This document shows, one piece after another, positions 41,838 to 51,903 of a stretch of 55,412 nucleotides of DNA (position 1 is its first letter; the number at the start of each line of letters is the position of its first letter). The notes under the pieces were generated by a model. The model was given only the letters and a program-made list of their open reading frames with translations. It ran no database searches and had not been told where the DNA came from. The DNA is from Vulcanimicrobiota bacterium (GTDB taxonomy: Bacteria; Vulcanimicrobiota; Xenobia; Xenobiales; JADMJV01). The position numbers and the translations under genes are program-made. The stretch spans positions 1-55,412 of the forward strand of contig JBFWNU010000006.1 of the NCBI GenBank assembly GCA_050250895.1, given 5' to 3'.

Positions 41838-43370
41838 CTAGGGTCTGGCCACCGCCCTGGCCTGGGCGAAGATGGCTCGGGGCCCAGAACCCTCCATCCT
41901 GGCCCGTCCATTGGCGGCCAGGTGCTGGAGGATATGGAAGATGGTCTCGGTCTGGTCGACCCGGCCCATCCGGTCGGCCAGATCGCTGGCCGTCATGGCC
42001 TCACCCAGGCTGGTCTCGACGGCCTTCTGCAGTTCGAGCACGTCGGCCGCGGCCTTCTTGCCGGCCTCGACCCCGGGCTGGTGGTAGGCGTTGATGTCGA
42101 CCAGTTCAGCGTACAGCCCCACGGCCCGCTCGTAGAGGGCGATCAATCCCCCGACCGTGAAGGCGTCGACCCGGGGCACGGTGAGCGTGATCGAGCTGCG
42201 TCCGTTCTCGGAGAGGGCCTGGCGGGTGCCCTGCCAGAACCCCGAAAGGTAGTCGCCCGAGGTCACTCCCTCGGCCACCTCGACCGGGCGGCCGCCGTCT
42301 TCGAGCACCACGATGAAGGTGGCAAAGAAGTTGTTGAGGCCGTCCCGTAGCTGTTGCACATAGGCGTGCTGGTCGGTGCTGCCTTTGTTGCCATAGACGG
42401 CGATGCCCTGATGGACCTCCTTGCCTCGGCGGTCGAGCGCCTTGCCCAGCGACTCCATCACCAGTTGCTGCAGGTAGCGGCTAAACAGCTCGAGACTATC
42501 TTTGTAAGGCAAGATCACCATGTCCTTGGCGCCTTTACCATTGCCGGCGGCGTGCCAGGCGGCCGCCAGCAAAGCGGCCGGATTCTCACGCCAACTCTGG
42601 CGGCGGGTGAGATTGTCCATCACCCTGGCCCCCTCCAGCAGGGCGTCGCAGTCGACCCCGGCCAGCCCACAGGGAACCAGTCCCACGGCCGACATCACCG
42701 AAGTGCGTCCCCCTACCCAATCCCACATGGGAAAGCGGGCCAACCAGCCTTCGGCCTCGGCCATTTGGTCGAGCTTGCTGCCCAGACCGGTCACGGCCAC
42801 GGCTTGCTTGGCGAAGCTGAGTCCGGCGGCCTCGACGGTTTTACGGGCTACCAGCATGCCGTTGAAGGTCTCGGGTGTGCCGCCCGACTTAGAGATGACC
42901 ACCACCAGGGTTTTGGCCAGGTCCAGCCCCTTGAGGGTGCGCTCGAAGCCGGCCGGATCGGTGTTGTCGAAAAAGTGCAAGTCGAGACCCTGTCCGGTCA
43001 ACGCCTGGTAGATGAACTGGGGACCCAGGGCCGAGCCGCCGATGCCGATGGAGAGCACGTGTCGAAACTGGCCCCCGCTCTTGATTCTGGCCACGAAGGT
43101 CTTGATGTTGGCCGCCGTCTCGCGGATCTCGGCCGTGAGTTCGGGCTCGGGAGCCAGCTCAGGGAAGCGCAACCAGTAGTGCCCGACCATCCGCTGCTCG
43201 TCCGGATTGGCCACGGCCCCGGCTTCAAGCGCCTCCATCGCCGCCAGCGCGCCGGCCATCGGCTCATCGAACCGGGTTAAGTCGGCGAGATCGCTGCGCG
43301 AGAGGTCGAGGGTCAATCCCGCTTCGGGATAGGCGAAGTAGAAGTCTTGAAAACGTTGCCAGGTGGTCAT
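41838..43370 (-). CDS. pgi: Glucose-6-phosphate isomerase
   Basis: [52 protein letters not shown]. Confidence 0.97.
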
Positions 43371-43421
43371 GGGGCTGGCTTTCGTGTCCCCTCGGCCGTT
43401 CGCCTCCAGGGCGCGCTCGGC

Positions 43422-43776
43422 AGAAGGGAGCCGCTGCGCGGAGAAAGGAGCAGTGGCTGCGCCACTGAGACGGGAGCGCTAACTTCGCTTGCGCTCGTTA
43501 GCGGGAGAGGGGCGAGGTTCGCTTTGGCTCACCTCGAGATTTTAAGGTACACGACGCTCCGCGTCGTAACACGGGCGCGGCAAGCCGCGAAGTCCGACCC
43601 CCCGGGCCGAAGGCCTCGAAGGTTTGCGGCCGCAGGCCGCCTATCCATCCCTCGAAGCGAGCGACAGCGAGTTTCGCTCCCCCCTCGGAGCTCTGCTCCG
43701 CTCCCCTCTCCGGCCAAAGGCCGGCTCCTTTCTCGGCCACATCGTGGCCGCTTCGCTCTCGCGAGCGTAGCGAGCG
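43422..43776 (-). repeat. Hairpin-chain element, inverted copy
   Basis: Reverse complement of 48279..48638 and of ~49281..49640. Confidence 0.92.
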
Positions 43777-43777
43777 C

Positions 43778-46700
43778 CTACTGCCGGATGTCGAGCTGGA
43801 AGTCGTTGATGGTGACGGTTTGCTCGTCCATTTCGAGGCTGCCGCCGGCCTGGCGGCTAGCCAGGAAGTTGTTCCAGGCCGTCTCGACGTTGGGAGAGAG
43901 GACATACTCGTGGGCCAGTTGGGTGACGGCCTTGCCCAGGTCGGGCAGGTTTAGGTTGTAGAGTCGGCCGAGCAATACCAGGCCGTCTCCGTTGGGAATT
44001 CCGCTCAGGGTCTTGAGGCCTTTGAGCAAGTCGGGATTGGGATCTTTGGCGATGCGCGCCACCGATTCGGCGGCCGTCTTGCCACCGTCATCGCGATAGA
44101 CCGTGCCGTCTGAGTCTTTCACCTCGAGAGCCTTGAGCCAGAATCCGTCTTTCTCGTTGCTGCCGTCACTGGTGAAGTGAAAGCGCAGGCGGACCTGGCC
44201 GACTTGCTCGGGCAGGTTGAGGGTGGTCGGCCCGCTGCTGGTGCCGGTGAACTCTTGGAGATTGTTCCAGGTCTGACCGTCGCTCGACCAGGCCAGGGCC
44301 ACCTTGTCATACCCCTGCTCGAGATCATAGTCGAGGTCGAGGCTCACGGTGGCGGCTTTGCCCCGCAGCCCGAAGGGCGGGGTGATCAAGCTCTTGGATT
44401 GGTTGGACTGATAAGGACCATAGGGGCTCTCGCTCCAACCGTGGCTGGTGCGGGTCCAGCCGTCGCTGTGCCAGCCCGCTTCCGGGGCTGACTTCAAGAG
44501 GGCCAGGATAGCCTCGGCGGTGGCTGGTTCGATGCTCATTTCGCCGGGCTCGGCCACGCCCAGGGCCTTGAGTTCTTCCGCCACCAGACGACCTGACAGG
44601 CGGGCTCCCACACCGGGGCCGGGAGCGAGTCCATCGGCGACGGCCCGGGCCCGGGCCGCACCGAAGTTGGTGGCCGTCAGCATGACCGTGCGAGCGAAGT
44701 CGCCAAAGTCGGGATGCTCGCGGTGAGGGTGCAGCACCGAGAAGACCTGCATGGCGGCATGGACGTTGCCTAGAGCCTGGGCGAGTTCATAGATGGCTTC
44801 GCACCCTTCCAGAGCCTGCTCCCGGTCGCCCGCAAACAGGGCTTTGATCGTATCGAGTTCGATTCGACGCTCTTCGGGAACGTCGGTCATCAGAGTTTGC
44901 TCACCGTCGCGCACCCGAAAATTGCGCATGGCGAATCCGTCCATGGCGTTGGAGGCGTCGGTGACTTCGCGCAAGCGCAACCGCAGGGGACCGCCTGCGA
45001 AGGGCTGGAGAGGAACCGAGACAGCGGTCCAGGCCTCGAGGGGGCCGGTGAATGCCTTCAGTTCGTGCCACTGGCCATCGCCCCGGCTGGCTTCTAGCAA
45101 CACCTTGTCATAGTTTTGCTCGAGCTGGTGGCGAGCCTCGAATTCGACCACCGGGGCCGCTGCCCCGGCCAGGTTCAGGGGATGCGTAGTCAGCGACTGA
45201 TTGGCGTTCAAAGCATAATCGCGACCGGGCAAACTGTCGAGCCAGACCGGGCCCCGGCGGCGCCATTCGCCTTCGGCGGTCCACAGGGACAAGCCCTGGG
45301 CGAGTTTGGTCAGGGCCGGTTCGTGGTCGAGTTGGAGACGGGTCAGATTGTCGGTCAACTCGACCAGATCGTCTAGCCGCGGGGCCTGAGAGGTGCCTTT
45401 GAGCAATTCCTGAGCGAGGTCCCAACTCCGCATGGCCCGCTCGACGTTTTGTTCGACATCTCCTTCGAGCACTCGGGTGGCCAGCCGTTGGGTGGGTTCG
45501 ACTCCCAGCTTTCCGATCATCGGCGCCAGGGCTTGGGTGGGTTGCGATTGCAGCGACGGCCAGAGCTTGAGGGCGGTCGCCGCACTGCCGATTGCCTCAG
45601 CCAGCCCAGCTAAAGCGGGCACCTGGGCCGGCGTTTGGCCGGCAAACTCGTGCAGCCCCTCGAGTGTCAGGCGACGGCCTTCGGCTCCCGCGTCGAATAG
45701 GACCTCCGGTTCGCGTTCGGGAGCGTAGTTGCGCCGGCCTTCGAGCTTGAGGTCCTTGAGAAAGAATCCCTCACCGTCGTTGGAGGCATCGGAGGTGAGG
45801 TGGAAGCGAATCCAGACCCGTCCGCCTTCAAAAGGAGTCAGGTCGTAGTGCTGGTCGCTCCAGCCGGAGTCTCCGGTGTAGCTGGCCAGGGTGGTAAACG
45901 TATGACCGTCGCTGGACGCCTGCAGGTCGACCTTGTCATAGCCCTTCTCGAGCTGATGGCGAGAGGTAAACGACAACCGGGTTCCGGCCGCGTGGGTGAG
46001 GTCGATGGGCTCGAGCGTAAGCGAGTCGTTGCGGTTCATTCCGTAACCGCCGTTGGGATTGGTGCACCATTGGCCGGGCTCGTTCTGGCCCCACACGCCG
46101 CCGCAATCAAACGGCGAGCGCACGGCCAGCTCGACCAACCGTCCGAAGCTCTGAGGTTCGACGCCCTGGGATTTCAGCTGGTCATACAGGCCAAGAGCGT
46201 GCTCTAGCCCGTTGCGACTTAGCTCGGAGGCGGCCGAGAAGAGAGCAATCTTGTCGGTCACCGCGCCCTCCTTTTCGAGCAAAGCCCGGGCCGGTCGCAT
46301 GCCCAGGGCAGACTCGAGTTGACGAGCCGCCTCCAGCTGGTCAGAACCTTCCAGGGCCAGCCCTACCAACAGCGCCGATTGCTGGGGCTGGTCGAGGCGG
46401 GCCAATCCTTCCAGGCGAGATTTTAGCAGCTCGCTCGGGGCATCGCCGTCGAGCAAATCGGCCAACACTCGGCCAGCCGTGTTCTCGGCTTCGAAAAGGT
46501 CCTCGGCCGGTCCGCCGTAGGCCGGGGTAGCCAGCAGTTTGACCTCGCTCAAGCGGCTCGCCGGGCCGTCGTTGCTGGCGTCTGAGGTCAGTCGAAAGCG
46601 TACTTCGGCGGCCTGGCCGTCGAAGGCACTCAGAGAATACTCGTGTTTTCCGCTGGTGGTTCCGGTGAAAGCCTCCAACGGCTGCCACGCGCCGGCCGGC

Positions 46701-48178
46701 TTGCGGACCTCGACATGCAGTTGGTCATAGCCCTTCTCGAGTTGGGTGGCCAGCTCAAACGACAGCCGGGCGCCCCGGTGGTGAGACAGGTCGACCCGCC
46801 GGGTCAGCGATTGGTTGGCGTTGTTGGGATAGTTGCCTGCGGCCTCAGCGAACACTCCGGGACTGGTCTCCAGCCAGCTGCCCTCGGCCTGCCAGCCCGA
46901 ACCGAGGTTGGTCTTGACCAGCCCATCGAGAAGTGCCAGGCTCAGACCCGTCTGCTGATAACGGGCCGCGCGCGCCGCCAGCACGGCAGGCTTGTCGGTG
47001 GCCAGTCGGGCGAGCGACTCGACCGTTTTGGCGTCGAGAGGCAGGCGGTCCCGGGTGGCCGTCAGGCAGCCGTCCAGTTGGTCGGGAAAGGCCTTGACCA
47101 GGGCCAGATGACCCTCCAGCTTTTCGTTGGGCAGCTCTTCGAGCTGACGGTGCAGGGCGACCACTTGCTCGGGCGAGACCGGGGCCGCCAGGCTAAAGTT
47201 GACCAACGACCTGTCCAGATCAGGGCTGGCAGCTACCTGGCCCACCAGCTCAGCCGGGTTCTCGCAGCCTCGTTGCCGGAGTCCGATGGTGGCCTTGAGC
47301 TGTCGCTCGAGGTCGCCGCCAAGGTCGAGCGCATTCCAGTCCTGGTTGGCCGTCTGCGGCGTGGCCTCGGCGAGCTGGTCGAAGCGGCGGGCCCGCTCGA
47401 GCAACTGGCTGGCATTGGCGTCAAAGGCCTGGGCTGGCTCATAGTTCCCGAGCGCGGCCTGGCGATAGTAGACGGGCACGGCCTGGCCCTGACCGGCCTG
47501 GCTGTACGCCTCGAGCAAGGCCTGAGGCTCAATCTTTTCCTGCCGGAGTTTGAGCAGTTCGGCGGCCTGGTCGGGGTGGGCGAGTTGGCTGGTGACCCCT
47601 TCGATACTGGCCAGAAAGGCGGCCTGATCGGGCGTGCTCAGACGGCCCAGGTCGGTCTCGACCGCTTGACCTTGTTGCAACTGGCGGTAGGCTGCCAGGG
47701 CCCCACCTTCTCCCAGGTGAATCTCGCCCGCTTTCAAATAGCTGCCCAGCGGGTCGGGCTGAAATTCCAGCGCGTGCAGAACAGTCAGGCCAGTCACACC
47801 CTCGAGGGGTAGCCAGGCGTGCTTGCCCACTTTGACCTGCAGGCTGGGTTCGTTCTTGACGGCCAGCCGGGCCGCTTTGGCCGGGTCGGCCGGCTTCCAA
47901 TCCTTGCGCCAGAAATCCCAGCCTCGGCCCTGATAGCGAAAGCTGACTTTATCGGCCAGCGCCTGGGTCTGTCGGGTGGCCTCGAGCACCGCCGGTCCTG
48001 GTCCGAAAAGCCCGCCAAAGAAGGCTCCAACCGCGCCCCACCACGAGGTTTTCGGGCTCGGGCTCGGCCTCTGGTCCGAGACCTCGACCTGGTCGTTTCT
48101 CTCCGGCGCCGGCGCAGCCACGCGCGGCACCGCCGGGGGGCGCCGGGCAAACGAGTGGCTGATCGGACCGATCTGCAT
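43778..48178 (-). CDS. 1466-aa protein with four repeated beta-sandwich domains (MAM / immune inhibitor A-like)
   Basis: Four copies of Y..N...SL...LE.(G/N)YD....W..L..FTG...R...(T)SD.SN..G separated by helical regions. Confidence 0.88.
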   Translation of the reverse strand: MQIGPISHSFARRPPAVPRVAAPAPERNDQVEVSDQRPSPSPKTSWWGAVGAFFGGLFGPGPAVLEATRQTQALADKVSFRYQGRGWDFWRKDWKPADPAKAARLAVKNEPSLQVKVGKHAWLPLEGVTGLTVLHALEFQPDPLGSYLKAGEIHLGEGGALAAYRQLQQGQAVETDLGRLSTPDQAAFLASIEGVTSQLAHPDQAAELLKLRQEKIEPQALLEAYSQAGQGQAVPVYYRQAALGNYEPAQAFDANASQLLERARRFDQLAEATPQTANQDWNALDLGGDLERQLKATIGLRQRGCENPAELVGQVAASPDLDRSLVNFSLAAPVSPEQVVALHRQLEELPNEKLEGHLALVKAFPDQLDGCLTATRDRLPLDAKTVESLARLATDKPAVLAARAARYQQTGLSLALLDGLVKTNLGSGWQAEGSWLETSPGVFAEAAGNYPNNANQSLTRRVDLSHHRGARLSFELATQLEKGYDQLHVEVRKPAGAWQPLEAFTGTTSGKHEYSLSAFDGQAAEVRFRLTSDASNDGPASRLSEVKLLATPAYGGPAEDLFEAENTAGRVLADLLDGDAPSELLKSRLEGLARLDQPQQSALLVGLALEGSDQLEAARQLESALGMRPARALLEKEGAVTDKIALFSAASELSRNGLEHALGLYDQLKSQGVEPQSFGRLVELAVRSPFDCGGVWGQNEPGQWCTNPNGGYGMNRNDSLTLEPIDLTHAAGTRLSFTSRHQLEKGYDKVDLQASSDGHTFTTLASYTGDSGWSDQHYDLTPFEGGRVWIRFHLTSDASNDGEGFFLKDLKLEGRRNYAPEREPEVLFDAGAEGRRLTLEGLHEFAGQTPAQVPALAGLAEAIGSAATALKLWPSLQSQPTQALAPMIGKLGVEPTQRLATRVLEGDVEQNVERAMRSWDLAQELLKGTSQAPRLDDLVELTDNLTRLQLDHEPALTKLAQGLSLWTAEGEWRRRGPVWLDSLPGRDYALNANQSLTTHPLNLAGAAAPVVEFEARHQLEQNYDKVLLEASRGDGQWHELKAFTGPLEAWTAVSVPLQPFAGGPLRLRLREVTDASNAMDGFAMRNFRVRDGEQTLMTDVPEERRIELDTIKALFAGDREQALEGCEAIYELAQALGNVHAAMQVFSVLHPHREHPDFGDFARTVMLTATNFGAARARAVADGLAPGPGVGARLSGRLVAEELKALGVAEPGEMSIEPATAEAILALLKSAPEAGWHSDGWTRTSHGWSESPYGPYQSNQSKSLITPPFGLRGKAATVSLDLDYDLEQGYDKVALAWSSDGQTWNNLQEFTGTSSGPTTLNLPEQVGQVRLRFHFTSDGSNEKDGFWLKALEVKDSDGTVYRDDGGKTAAESVARIAKDPNPDLLKGLKTLSGIPNGDGLVLLGRLYNLNLPDLGKAVTQLAHEYVLSPNVETAWNNFLASRQAGGSLEMDEQTVTINDFQLDIRQ

Positions 48179-48220
48179 ATCCCCAGCCTATCGCCAGACC
48201 CTGAAAAATCGGTGAAGCGC

Positions 48221-48660
48221 GGCGCTCGCTGTGCTCGCGCGACGGGAGCGGCCACGTTGTGGCCGAGAAGGGAGCCGACGCTCGCTGTGCTCGCGAGAAG
48301 GGAGCGGCCACGATGTGGCCGAGAAGGGAGCCGGCCTTTGGCCGGAGAGGGGAGCGGAGCAGAGCTCCGAGGAGGGAGCGAAACTCGCTGTCGCTCGTTT
48401 CGGGTGGTCAGATAGGCGGCCTGCGGCCGCAACCCTTCGATGGCCTTCGGCCAGAGCCGGGCCGAATTTTGCGGCTTGCCGCACCAGTGTTACGACGCGA
48501 AGCGTCGTGTACCTCAAAATCTCGAGGTGAGCCAAAGCGAACCTCGCCCCTTTTCCCGCTAACGAGCGCAAGCGAAGTTAGCGCTCCCATCTCAGCGGCG
48601 CAGCCGCTGCTCCCACCTCCGCGTAGCGGCTCCCTTCTCGCCGGCTACGCCGGCGCCGCT
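48221..48660 (+). repeat. Hairpin-chain element, with its first ~57-bp module duplicated
   Basis: Chain of ~15-bp palindromes joined by GAGAAGGGAG / CTCCCTTCTC linkers. Confidence 0.92.
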
Positions 48661-48709
48661 TGGACATTCGTTCGACGGGAGGGGGTTTGGAGGCGGCGAA
48701 GATGAGTCG

Positions 48710-49069
48710 ATGCATTCTCAACCTTATCAAAAACTGGTCACCTGGCAGCGAGCCATGGACCTTGTGCCTAAAATCTATAAACTAACCAACGACATCCCCC
48801 CACACGAGCAGTTTGGCCTCATCAGCCAGATTCAGCGCGCTAGCGTTTTGATCGCGGCCAACATCGCCGAGGGTCAGACGCGCGAGTCGCCGCGAGCGTT
48901 TGCCTATCATCTCAGCCTCGCCCGCGGTAAGCTGGCGCAGGTCGAGACCCTGCTTCAGATCGCCCTCAAGCTCCACTACATTCGCCCCGCCCAGGTGGAT
49001 GCTTTGAAGGGCAATCTGGCCGACCTGCGCCGCCTGCTCGCTGGGCTGGTTCGAAAGGTCGAGGCGTGA
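48710..49069 (+). CDS. Four-helix-bundle protein (23S rRNA IVP / bAvd-like family)
   Basis: L.TWQRAMDL...IY.LT...P..E.FGL.SQI.RA.V.I.ANIAEG...F...L..ARG...ET.L.IA..L.Y. Confidence 0.95.
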   Translation: MHSQPYQKLVTWQRAMDLVPKIYKLTNDIPPHEQFGLISQIQRASVLIAANIAEGQTRESPRAFAYHLSLARGKLAQVETLLQIALKLHYIRPAQVDALKGNLADLRRLLAGLVRKVEA

Positions 49070-49787
49070 TGCTCGCTGTGCTCGCGAGAAGGGAGCCGAC
49101 GCTCGCTTTGCTCGCGAGAAGAGAGCGGCCACGTTGTGGCCGAGAAAGGAGCCGGCCTTGGGCCGGAGAGGGGAGCGGAGCAGAGCTCCGAGGAGGGAGC
49201 GAAACTCGCTGTCGCTCGTTTCGAGGGATGGATAGGCGGCCTTAGGCCGCAACCCTTGGATGGCCTTCGGCCAGAGCCGGCGCTCGCTATGCTCGCGAGA
49301 AGGGAGCGGCCACGTTGTGGCCGAGAAAGGAGCCGGCCTTGGGCCGGAGAGGGGAGCGGAGCAGAGCTCCGAGGAGGGAGCGAAACTCGCTGTCGCTCGT
49401 TTCGAGGGTAAGATAGGCGGCCTGCGGCCGCAACCCTTGGATGGCCTTCGGCCCGGGGGGTCGGACTTCGCGGCTTGCCGCGCCCGAATTACGACGCGAA
49501 GCGTCGTGTACCTTAAGAACTCGAGGTGAGCCAAAGCGAACCTCGCTCCTTCCTCGCTAACGAGCGCAAGCGAAGTTAGCGCTCCCATCTCAGCGGCGCA
49601 GCCGCTGCTCCCACCTCCGCGTAGCGGCTCCCTTCTCGCCGGCGTAGCCGGCGCCGCTCCCATCTCAGCGGCGCAGCCGCTGCTCCCACCTCCGCGTAGC
49701 GGCTCCCTTCTCGCCGGCGTAGCCGGCGCCGCTCCCTTCTCGCAAGCGAAGCGACGCGCTCCCTTCTCGCCGGCTACGCCGGCGCCG
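49070..49787 (+). repeat. Expanded hairpin-chain element with internal 181-bp and 75-bp tandem duplications
   Basis: Duplicated blocks start at 49100/49281 and 49581/49656; the element fills the whole gap between two convergent stop codons. Confidence 0.92.
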
Positions 49788-50768
49788 CTAGCCGAACAGC
49801 TTGCTGACCGAAAGGTTGAAATAGTTGCGCCGAATGGCTTCGCCTAAAAGGGGAGCGACCGAGAGCACCGTGACTTTGCCGCGTTGGGCCGAGGAGGCCA
49901 CTGGAATGGTGTCGGTGACGATCACTTCTTCCAGGGGCGAGGCCTCGATCAGATCTACGGCGTTGCCGGCGAAGAGAGCGTGGGTGGCGGCCGCGAAGGC
50001 CCGCTTGGCGCCTCGCTCCATGAGCATCTCGACGCCGCGCACCAGGGTGTTGCCGGTCGAGATGATATCGTCGACGATCAACACCGTCTTGCCTTCGATT
50101 TCACCCACCAGGTCGATCACGTCGATGGCGTCGGGGCGGGGGCGGCGTTTGAAGATGATGGCCAGGCCTGCGCCCAGACGCTCGGCGAACATGCGGGCGC
50201 GGTTCACGCCTCCGGCGTCGGGCGAGACCACGACCAGGTCTTCCTTGGGAAAGTTCTTGCGGCGGAAATACTCGACCACGATTGGCATGGCCATCAGGTT
50301 GTCCACCGGAATGTCGAAGAAGCCCTGAATGGCAGCCGCGTGCAGGTCGACCGTGACCACGCGGTCGGCCCCGGCGGTAGTGATCAGGTTGGCTACCAGT
50401 TTGGCCGTGATGGGTTCGCGACCGGCCGTCTTCTTTTCCTGGCGGGCGTAGCCATAGTAGGGGATGACGGCGGTGATGGTCTTGGCCGAAGAGCGGCTCA
50501 GGGCGTCGCACATAATGAGCAATTCCATCAGTGTCTCGTTGACGTTGCCGCAGGTCGGCTGCACCACGAAGACCTCGGCCCCGCGCACGTTCTCTTCGAT
50601 CTGGACCCGGATCTCGCCGTTGGTGAAACGGGACACCAGCGCGTCACCGAGAGAGACCTCCAGATACTCCGAAATCGCCTGGGCCAGCCTGGGGTTGGCG
50701 TTGCCGGTGAAGACAACGATATTCTCACCCTCGAGGGCTGGCTGCTCCCTCTCTTCCAGAACTAACAT
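49788..50768 (-). CDS. prs: Ribose-phosphate pyrophosphokinase
   Basis: FTNGE, PYYGYARQEKK, DLH, VVSPDAGG, IVDDIISTGNT. Start is 50768 or 50777. Confidence 0.97.
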   Translation of the reverse strand: MLVLEEREQPALEGENIVVFTGNANPRLAQAISEYLEVSLGDALVSRFTNGEIRVQIEENVRGAEVFVVQPTCGNVNETLMELLIMCDALSRSSAKTITAVIPYYGYARQEKKTAGREPITAKLVANLITTAGADRVVTVDLHAAAIQGFFDIPVDNLMAMPIVVEYFRRKNFPKEDLVVVSPDAGGVNRARMFAERLGAGLAIIFKRRPRPDAIDVIDLVGEIEGKTVLIVDDIISTGNTLVRGVEMLMERGAKRAFAAATHALFAGNAVDLIEASPLEEVIVTDTIPVASSAQRGKVTVLSVAPLLGEAIRRNYFNLSVSKLFG

Positions 50769-50787
50769 CTCCCGCATCCCCTTCGCT

Positions 50788-51903
50788 TTACAGATTACCC
50801 CGCCGAGCTTGCTCTCGCTCAATCGCTTCGAACAAAGCTTTGAAGTTCCCCTGGCCAAAACCGCGACTTCCGCGTCTTTGGATCACCTCGAAGAAGACGG
50901 TGGGGCGATCCTGGATGGGGCGGGTGAAGATCTGCAACAGATAGCCTTCTTCATCGCGGTCGACCAGAATGCCCAGCCGCTGCAGGTCGGCCAGGTTCTC
51001 TTTGATGGTCCCGATCCGGTCGGGAATGGCCGCATAATAGCTGTCGGGAATGGTCAAGAACTCGAGGCCGTTGTCGCGCAGTTGGGACACGGTGGAGATG
51101 ATATCGCCGGTCAGCAGGGCGATGTGCTGCACCCCAGGGCCTCGATAGAAGTCGAGGTACTCTTCGATCTGGGATTTTTTCTTGCCCTGGGCGGGCTCGT
51201 TGATCGGAAACTTGATCTTGCCGGTGCCGTCCTGCATCACCTTGGACATCAGGGCGCTGTATTCGGTCGAGATATCTTCATCGTCAAAGTGCAGCAGTTG
51301 CGAAAAGCCCATGGTTTCGGCATAGAACCGGACCCACTCGTTCATCCTGCCGAGCTCGACATTGCCGACGATGTGGTCGATGGCCGCCAACCCTACTCCG
51401 TGGCCCTTCTGGTCGCGGGATTCGAAACCAGGTAGGAAGGGTCCGGTGTAGTCGCCCAGGGCCACGAAGGTGTGCACGGTATCGCCGTAGGTAGCGATGG
51501 TCGCCAGTTCCACCGTGCCGTTGTCATCGCTGAGCTTGCGGGGCTCCTCCACCGGCTGGGCGCCGCGCTTGGTGGTCTCGGCGAAGGCTTTGGCTGCATC
51601 GTCGACCTCGAGCGCCATGCAGCGAACGCCGTCGCCGTGACGATGGATGTGGTCGGCCATCGGGTGATCGGGAGTGAGGGGAGTACTGACCACGAAGCGG
51701 ACCTTACCCTGCCCGAGCACATAACTGGCGGCCTCACGATGACCGGTCTCGGGGCCTCGATAGGCCACCAGGTCAAAGCCCATCACTTTATGGTAGAAAT
51801 ACGAGGCCTGTTTGGCGTTGCCAACCCAGAACTCGATGTGATGGACGTTCTTGAGAGGGAGAAAATCCTGGGCGGCCGGTGTCGCCTGTGACTGCGTCTT
51901 CAT
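50788..51903 (-). CDS. hppD: 4-hydroxyphenylpyruvate dioxygenase
   Basis: HHIEFWVGNAKQA, HGDGV, IDHIVGN, GVQHIAL, LLQIFT, FFEVIQR, GFGQGNFKALFEAIE. Confidence 0.97.
   Translation of the reverse strand: MKTQSQATPAAQDFLPLKNVHHIEFWVGNAKQASYFYHKVMGFDLVAYRGPETGHREAASYVLGQGKVRFVVSTPLTPDHPMADHIHRHGDGVRCMALEVDDAAKAFAETTKRGAQPVEEPRKLSDDNGTVELATIATYGDTVHTFVALGDYTGPFLPGFESRDQKGHGVGLAAIDHIVGNVELGRMNEWVRFYAETMGFSQLLHFDDEDISTEYSALMSKVMQDGTGKIKFPINEPAQGKKKSQIEEYLDFYRGPGVQHIALLTGDIISTVSQLRDNGLEFLTIPDSYYAAIPDRIGTIKENLADLQRLGILVDRDEEGYLLQIFTRPIQDRPTVFFEVIQRRGSRGFGQGNFKALFEAIEREQARRGNL

Follow-up and report, generated by a model that had tools for sequence, protein, structure and literature searches.

The DNA analysed here, called the window, is a stretch of 55,412 nt from a Vulcanimicrobiota bacterium (assembly GCA_050250895.1, contig JBFWNU010000006.1, positions 1 to 55,412 of the forward strand), whose genome is designated G000. 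This work concerns the interval 48221-49787, in which an intact gene of the Pfam family PF05635 lies between two blocks of hairpin-bearing repeats, unit A and unit B. A first-pass annotation had described the interval as a single element of ~360-440 bp. Reading of the sequence over 47900-50100, split at its recurring linker motif, resolved it instead into unit A, a gene of 119 codons and unit B; the gene, in the middle of the interval, had been missed. The gene together with its flanking repeats is called a cassette below. It sits between prs and pgi, outside rRNA.

Unit A occupies 48215-48662 on the plus strand. It consists of a purine-linker hairpin chain (~48221-48379), a core of five to six longer hairpins (48380-48560) and a pyrimidine-linker chain (48561-48660). 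In the 5' half, GC hairpins of 13-19 nt are each followed by the linker GAGAAGGGAGC or a one-letter variant of it. The core in the middle spans ~180 nt, and in the 3' half each hairpin is preceded by a linker of the GCTCCCTTCTC type, complementary to GAGAAGGGAGC. The two halves are mutually inverted. The linker, 11 nt in length, corresponds to 1.5 units of (GGGAGAA)n, and each linker is separated from the next by a mini-hairpin. When up to one mismatch was allowed, the window contained 34 copies of the linker against 2.7 expected (largest number in a shuffled sequence, 7).

Unit B (49070-49787, plus strand) is 92-93% identical to unit A and comprises one and a half units plus further right-arm modules. 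Module layout and the repeat families D1, D2, D4 and D6 divide it into a truncated first unit (49070-49272), a full second unit (49274-49660) and extra duplicated right-arm modules (49655-49787). Its first base directly follows the stop codon of the PF05635 gene and its last base directly precedes the stop codon of prs.

The PF05635 gene is located at 48710-49069 on the plus strand and is intact. Its product of 119 aa matched the Pfam profile with an E-value of 3.2e-29 over profile positions 2-105 of 106, and is net basic (16 K+R versus 9 D+E). A match to bAvd was weak and below the cut-off (E 1.3e-5). PF05635 is the protein family of 23S rRNA intervening sequences (IVSs), also named S23p or IVP, a four-helix bundle similar to Avd. 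The presence of this gene ties the element to cassettes of the rRNA IVS type. A plus-strand leader (48661-48709) precedes the gene and starts with the motif TGGACATTCGTTCGACGGGAG (48661-48681), which is kept 5' of all three PF05635 genes of the genome, where the shared leader motif reads TGGACAnnCGTTCGACGGGA. The leader may act as a promoter or as a 5' untranslated region.

The genome is 9.5 Mb in 17 contigs and 99.6% complete, and it contains only three PF05635 genes, on contigs C6, C8 and C2. All three are intact and encode net basic proteins, 55-56% identical to one another (62-66% for the genes at the nucleotide level). Repeat units flank every one of the three on both sides, within a few dozen bases, whereas only a handful of the ~7800 called genes are flanked on both sides at all. 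The C2 gene has arms of a second subfamily with other linkers. When the upstream flank was compared with the reverse complement of the downstream flank, the window locus scored 40; one shifted control reached 44 and itself overlapped the repeats. Genes sandwiched between units elsewhere encode an HNH-like protein, a DUF433-like protein and hypothetical proteins. The HNH-endonuclease-like gene (C7:258021-259277) and the DUF433-like gene (C9:189614-189904) are each enclosed by two repeat loci, but more loosely than the PF05635 genes are. The genome has a single 23S gene (C1:2632839-2635844, 3006 nt), which holds no repeat locus.

The hairpins quoted in the first-pass annotation were all recovered at their reported places or beside them. 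These are GGCCAC-GAT-GTGGCC (48306-48320), CCGGCC-TTT-GGCCGG (48331-48345), GCGGCC-TGC-GGCCGC (48417-48431), ACGACGC-GAA-GCGTCGT (48493-48509), AGCGGC-GCA-GCCGCT (48594-48608) and GCCGGC-TAC-GCCGGC (48640-48654), together with the minus-strand stem CGAAACGAGC-GACA-GCGAGTTTCG at 48380-48403, which contains tandem G.A mismatches. The compensatory change that had been reported for one stem is real: AGCGGC..GCCGCT at 48594-48608 corresponds to AGTGGC..GCCACT at 43452-43466 in an inverted copy. Unit A was predicted to fold as RNA at -259 kcal/mol on the plus strand, with a z-score of -7.4 relative to shuffled sequences (-5.8 for the minus strand), and as DNA at -144.6 kcal/mol (z-score -6.9). In every predicted fold, left-half linkers were paired with right-half linkers and mini-hairpins branched off, so that RNA and DNA folding both returned the single branched structure that had been proposed.

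Between consecutive linkers we counted 431 modules genome-wide, 193 of them distinct. A perfect stem of at least 4 bp was present in 51% of the distinct modules compared with 11% in shuffled sequences (largest 19%), and one of at least 5 bp in 36% compared with 2%. The 98 perfect-hairpin modules had 45 different stem arms, and 89 of them had a C-G closing pair. GNA triloops were strongly strand-biased, as the first-pass annotation had suggested for C-GNA-G loops: 50 of 89 triloops had this form on the pyrimidine-linker strand, and 3 of 89 on the opposite strand. On the pyrimidine-linker strand G.A or A.G made up 59 of 104 internal mismatches, compared with 5 for G.T or T.G and 10 for A.C or C.A. 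On this strand tandem G.A pairs allow even modules with the appearance of direct repeats (GCTCGC-TGT-GCTCGC) to form hairpins. A structure-forming strand is thus defined, yet it lacks a wobble signature pointing to RNA.

Covariation was assessed in an alignment of four near-full copies, in which 98.6% of cells were paired. Five of 121 pairs were changed on both sides, compared with 2.0 +/- 1.1 in shuffled alignments, of which 2 of 500 reached this number, and with 0-2 in slid controls; three of the five lie in long-range linker helices. Covariation among these copies is modest but positive. The earlier interpretation is supported in part. Selection on single-stranded structure, which it proposed, is not the sole route to perfect hairpins: templated correction of quasi-palindromes in DNA produces the same pattern. 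Between copies the loop is flipped (TAC versus GTA) inside identical stems, the outcome expected of hairpin inversion at the DNA level. This flip, together with the lack of a G.U excess, leads us to lean towards DNA-level processes.

Linker clusters and BLAST searches with ten query units identified 135 repeat loci with a total length of 34.7 kb (0.37% of the genome). The genome contained 608 linker matches and 51 clusters of at least three. These loci, in mosaic arrangement, bear out the suggestion of a dispersed, modular, extragenic palindromic repeat of the REP/BIME type (repetitive extragenic palindrome/bacterial interspersed mosaic element), probably non-autonomous. Of these, 127 loci are without a PF05635 gene, and most of these abut stop codons; almost no locus overlaps a called gene. 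The repeats occupy 109 spacers, the spacers of the cassettes included. Convergent spacers are enriched (38 of 109, compared with 1529 of 7783, or 20%, of all spacers) and divergent spacers are depleted (15 of 109 versus 20% of all). A unit edge lies at most 5 nt from the 3' end of the adjacent gene at 49 of 167 such ends, and from the 5' end at 3 of 98. The order of linkers was counted in 68 stop-abutting rows, 25 of which have no canonical linker. All 11 rows with both linker types have the purine linker before the pyrimidine linker; of the arrays with a single linker type, 23 rows have the purine linker in mRNA sense and 9 the pyrimidine linker. At many loci units are piled next to each other, and five contig ends coincide with repeat units. 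When the gene-less loci were assigned to their closest cassette flank, 52 resembled C6, 40 C2 and 31 C8, and 4 resembled none, so that 123 of 127 resemble a cassette flank; the count is partly circular in that some of these flanks had served as queries.

Two gene-less copies are present in the window. One is a near-full, inverted copy on the minus strand (43409-43778), 90% identical to unit A over 365 nt, which lies between the stop codon of a gene of 1466 aa and the start of pgi. The other, a divergent copy of the second subfamily (C2 type), is at the very start of the contig (53-470). The 1466-aa gene (43778-48178, minus strand) encodes a product with InhA-like MAM and F5/8 type C domains. 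Repeat units in inverted orientation stand on either side of this gene, which resembles the cargo carried by a composite element.

In all four relatives examined (G001, G004, G005 and G002) prs and pgi are adjacent; in G001, of the same genus, they are 9 nt apart (TAA AGGAGCGCC ATG). The 6.4-kb segment 43371-49787, which has no counterpart in the relatives, is therefore an insertion; it contains the inverted unit, the InhA-like/MAM-domain gene of 1466 aa, unit A, the PF05635 gene and unit B. Another comparison with G001 concerns the C8 cassette (~1.3 kb), which occupies the site of a 162-bp spacer with a terminator-like hairpin; ~27 nt directly after the stop codon, resembling a small terminator, are replaced. 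DNA of unit A was not found by BLAST in any of 40 relatives. PF05635 was absent from all 15 genomes of the same family, G001 included, and present in 15 of 301 genomes of the phylum. A 23-mer from the core had no match in metagenome contigs. Contigs from four DNA sequencing runs of sludge or wastewater, compared over 42800-51000, revealed a population ~92% alike in which pgi, the 1466-aa gene, the PF05635 gene and also prs are present; the contigs of this population end at the unit edges. The repeat family is specific to one species-level lineage. In three metagenome runs, 208 nt of the unit A core (48452-48661) were replaced by 33 nt resembling the short core of the C8 unit; the shorter side of this joint measured 21 nt, and we do not rely on it.

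The arrangement of a PF05635 gene between inverted periodic arms is general. Among 37 PF05635 loci sampled from other genomes, 32 had inverted arms of a ~7-nt repeat around the gene. Within the phylum, eight of nine full-length loci from eight other genomes have the gene between a ~7-nt array and its reverse complement, and the repeat differs from genome to genome (GGGAGAT, GGGTGTT, GCGTGAY, GTGAAAS, AGTATTT, CAGTGAC, AGTCAGG and GTTAAGAG). In ten genomes of other phyla, which were reached through an unrelated pattern scan and include Fischerella, Gemmataceae, Myxococcota, Bacteroidaceae and Syntrophobacteraceae, 24 of 28 loci had scores exceeding the 99th percentile in a set of 318 shifted controls. 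Fischerella PCC 9431 has arrays above this level around four of the six PF05635 loci tested. The period of the G000 arms is 24-30 nt (hairpin plus 11-nt linker) versus 7 nt in the heptamer arms, and both the bracketing and the polarity are present. Elsewhere the cassettes lie at operon junctions (hisH|hisF, rfbB|rfbA, sucC|sucD, hbd|thiolase) or within the reading frames of methyltransferases.

Dispersal of the arm repeat was also seen outside G000. The arm repeat (GGGAGAT)n of G018 contains GAGATGGGAG, a variant of the G000 linker. In that genome (GGGAGAT)3 occurs 292 times (control, 1) and in ten other genomes 0-1 times; the gene-less loci inspected there were mostly (GGGAGTA)n-loop-(ATCTCCC)n hairpins at gene ends, behind stop codons. 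The sequence (GGGTGTT)3 has 65 copies in G066, 23 in its congener G063, 1-2 in two further congeners and none in seven other genomes. A PF05635 gene accompanied by dispersed arrays of its own kind thus holds in three lineages, with elaborated arrays in G000. A three-linker pattern searched over a collection of genome contigs returned 49 short-period arrays from many phyla, none related to the G000 units; on a rough estimate, the majority are tandem repeats that probably matched by chance, and G000 itself may be outside the scan. PF05635 was present in 10 of 44 genomes with such arrays versus 15 of 301 in the phylum, a difference that is suggestive only, as the taxa differ.

Several further observations were made on these loci. 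At L134, L135 and L140 (G311, G301 and G303) inverted-arm cassettes lie inside DNA methyltransferase-like reading frames; the host gene is either split or has the insert removed from its transcript. In L134 and L135 the insert lies between the motifs ...SYYTP... and ...DPACGSGHFL..., and its position looks identical although the two genomes are distant. L070 (G054) has, 5' of its PF05635 gene, three tandem blocks of ~76 nt, each of which combines a heptamer arm with the initial codons of that gene, so that arm and gene start are duplicated together. Many PF05635 matches in G043, G030, G066 and G051 are fragments that lie no more than a few hundred bases from a contig end or contain stop codons, which suggests that assemblies are often broken at the cassettes and that the cassettes decay. 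Arrays repeating every 24-27 nt, made of a motif of the GAGAGGGGAGC type and a short GC module, stand beside CCCTCTCCCC...GGGGAGAGGG hairpins at L011, L023 and L027 in other phyla; the genomes of all three carry PF05635 genes.

The closest described system is the IVS in helix 45 of the Coxiella burnetii 23S rRNA gene, which is treated as a selfish element with an S23p open reading frame (ORF) whose protein has no known role (PMC4990558). It has a terminal inverted-repeat stem of 28 bp, cut by RNase III, and tandem GACAGAT heptamers that vary in number among strains; ORF-bearing IVSs in Leptospira and others are cited in the same paper (PMC4990558). Like that IVS, the G000 cassette has a PF05635 ORF in its middle, complementary termini able to loop the ORF out, and short repeats adjoining the ORF. 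It differs in lying outside rRNA at a junction of a protein operon, in having arms of ~400 bp built from chains of hairpins and 11-nt linkers in place of a 28-bp stem with heptamers, and in the multiplication of the arms alone at more than 100 sites. Within the literature found, heptamers are mentioned solely in the Coxiella paper (PMC4990558). Two papers term the S23p/IVP family uncharacterised (PMC4990558, PMC11270868), and three list it in cas operons, in CRISPR-linked or defence sets and in neighbourhoods of diversity-generating retroelements (DGRs) (PMC3936711, PMC10910872, PMC10053308). No description of inverted heptamer arrays around PF05635 genes outside rRNA, or of gene-less derivatives, was found in the full-text literature, subscription journals and supplements being outside the search.

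The units also resemble other known repeats. With REP/BIME and REPIN-RAYT (REP-associated tyrosine transposase) systems of proteobacteria they share extragenic palindromes in mosaics, conserved linkers, tens to hundreds of copies, a bias to gene 3' ends and convergent spacers, and a low-copy gene flanked by its own repeats. Unlike in REPIN-RAYT systems, the flanked gene is not a Y1 transposase, and the units form a large self-complementary structure with a purine half and a pyrimidine half. The BOX elements of Streptococcus pneumoniae are likewise non-coding modular repeats with a variable number of internal modules, fixed ends, strong folding and no transposase of their own, but they are unrelated in sequence and their modules measure 45-59 nt and are not chains of hairpins and linkers. 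To our knowledge no gene is associated with BOX elements. The short tandemly repeated repetitive (STRR) heptamers of heterocystous cyanobacteria are dispersed intergenic arrays of genome-specific 7-nt repeats, plain heptamer arrays unlike the G000 units; no link between STRRs and PF05635 appeared in the papers returned by the literature search. The commonest modules on the pyrimidine-linker strand (C-GAA-G, C-GCA-G and C-GTA-G) are of the GNA-triloop type known from d(GCGAAGC) DNA mini-hairpins, and the non-palindromic modules of this strand fold via tandem G.A, like tandem sheared G.A pairs. These are biophysical motifs and not a genetic element, and their presence is silent on DNA versus RNA.

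Taken as a whole, the interval is probably an IVS-type PF05635 cassette outside rRNA whose arms are hairpin chains and which is accompanied by many gene-less units; this reading includes the workings proposed below. We are highly confident of the identity of the cassette and of the association of arms and gene. The new part is the hairpin-chain arms and the scale of the gene-less spread. The arms, elsewhere plain inverted arrays of ~7 nt, would in G000 have turned into composite units of ~400 bp, each self-complementary and predicted to form one long branched stem. Where a gene lies at the junction of two units, the flanking half-units could also pair and loop the gene out. Gene-less units appear to have spread to more than 100 intergenic spacers, with a preference for the first bases after a stop codon, in a distribution like that of REP, BIME and REPIN; their likely source is the three cassettes that carry the gene. 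The workings would be as follows. Arms may fold in transcripts and, like rRNA IVSs, serve as substrates of RNase III; the IVP protein, which is basic and probably forms a ring, may bind the periodic arms; and spread and module turnover may take place at the DNA level by hairpin-driven slippage, template switching or recombination, with no classical transposase. We consider these steps somewhat less likely than not. The selfish character of the cassette is likewise our reading.

Several observations speak against this interpretation. The C6 and C8 arms are 87% identical and their proteins only 55% (62% for the nucleotide sequences); arms must accordingly be younger than the genes or more homogenised, and they turn over independently of them; this gap fits repeats that home to each other equally well as repeats driven by the gene. 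The one clean empty site, that of the C8 cassette against G001, showed neither a target-site duplication nor defined ends, and three of the five synteny comparisons (the C2 cassette, a C7 gene-less copy and the copy at C1:428290) gave no clean empty site. Copies at different loci do not exceed about 91% identity in any pair, and there is therefore no sign of a very recent burst. Arms were not detected at 4 of 28 and 1 of 9 PF05635 loci elsewhere. Furthermore, the gene calls came from a crude caller (7800 genes, 88.8% coding), which makes the distances to stop codons approximate.

In the main rival explanation the units are parasites in their own right, miniature mobile palindromes similar to REPs or miniature inverted-repeat transposable elements, with no functional tie to the PF05635 protein; they would insert preferentially into hairpins, terminators and each other and be attracted by the inverted arms that PF05635 cassettes already had. 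The identity of 87% between C6 and C8 arms versus 55% between the proteins is what such parasites would give, and so are the adjoining units at many loci and the occupied terminator positions, among them the G001 empty site with its terminator-like hairpin. We nevertheless consider this unlikely, since both-side flanking applies to three of three PF05635 genes as against a handful of ~7800 genes, and since in two further lineages, too, the arrays that are dispersed are the very ones found on both sides of the PF05635 gene of the genome. A search with Y1_Tnp and RVT_1, which did not exhaustively cover classical insertion sequence families, gave no transposase candidate for the units either. A quite improbable explanation is that the units serve the host as RNA elements under selection for RNA structure, whether as 3'-untranslated-region stabilisers or terminators, as RNase III sites that uncouple operons, or as sponges of a GGA-binding regulator such as CsrA, with single-stranded A/G-rich linkers setting the hairpins apart. 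Their placement directly after stop codons would fit, as would the strong predicted folds, the CsrA gene of the genome and the excess of purine linkers, Shine-Dalgarno-like or GGA-like, in the mRNA sense of one-linker arrays (23 versus 9). Units were not found in the same-genus genome at two comparable sites, nor was unit DNA found in the 40 relatives, so they are not conserved regulatory parts of those operons. Moreover, the hairpins are not followed by a T-run, neither strand has a G.U excess, 127 gene-less loci are many for a sponge RNA, and the Rfam search that had been suggested gave no match at the gathering score in the whole window. The host may nonetheless make some secondary use of the units.

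The first-pass annotation had also pointed to a partner transposase of the HUH/RAYT type or a reverse transcriptase, and neither was found in this 99.6%-complete genome. An extragenic mosaic of short palindromes with conserved linkers at gene 3' ends, around a low-copy gene flanked on both sides, is what a REP/BIME-RAYT system would look like, with the hairpins as REPs mobilised by a domesticated HUH (Y1) transposase. The Y1_Tnp profile (PF01797) had no match in the genome but matched 6 of 14 control genomes, and the flanked gene encodes a helical bundle of 119 aa and not an enzyme; this system is thereby largely refuted and very improbable. Least probable of all is that the gene is the DGR accessory gene Avd, with repeats left over from a template region and a variable region. 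The sub-cut-off bAvd match (E 1.3e-5) had raised it, and PF05635 is common beside DGRs according to one paper (PMC10053308). The reverse transcriptase profile RVT_1 (PF00078) had no match in the genome, and the flanks are hairpin chains rather than a pair of template and variable regions. The DGR explanation is refuted for the window locus unless a reverse transcriptase lies in unassembled sequence.

The IVS-type cassette favoured above may also be part of something wider. PF05635 proteins could be the trans-acting partner of a widespread, undescribed repeat class, an IVP-array system analogous to RAYT-REPIN without the transposase fold. The basic, ring-shaped helical bundle would then recognise periodic arms, heptamers or hairpin-plus-linker modules alike, as folded single strands, and would promote the copying of arms into hairpin-prone sites after stop codons and into rRNA helices. 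We put this forward as a speculation that is rather unlikely to hold. If true, it would provide one explanation for rRNA IVSs, cyanobacterial STRR heptamers and many orphan short-period arrays, and the target of the protein would best be studied on the G000 arms as natural substrate, given the GNA triloops and tandem G.A pairs that they bear on one particular strand.

The S23p/IVP family has been without known function since rRNA IVSs were described. G000 is an unusually rich case for its study: its three gene copies have diverged, its arms fall into two superfamilies, 127 copies lack the gene, a sister species provides empty sites, and the mini-hairpin motifs of the arms are strongly strand-specific. 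The binding of IVP proteins to the arms, the cutting of arms in RNA and the spread of palindromic repeats without a transposase become testable questions. The cassettes split tightly coupled operon genes, prs|pgi here and rfbB|rfbA, sucC|sucD and hisH|hisF elsewhere, and may be mistaken for functional members of host operons or defence islands.

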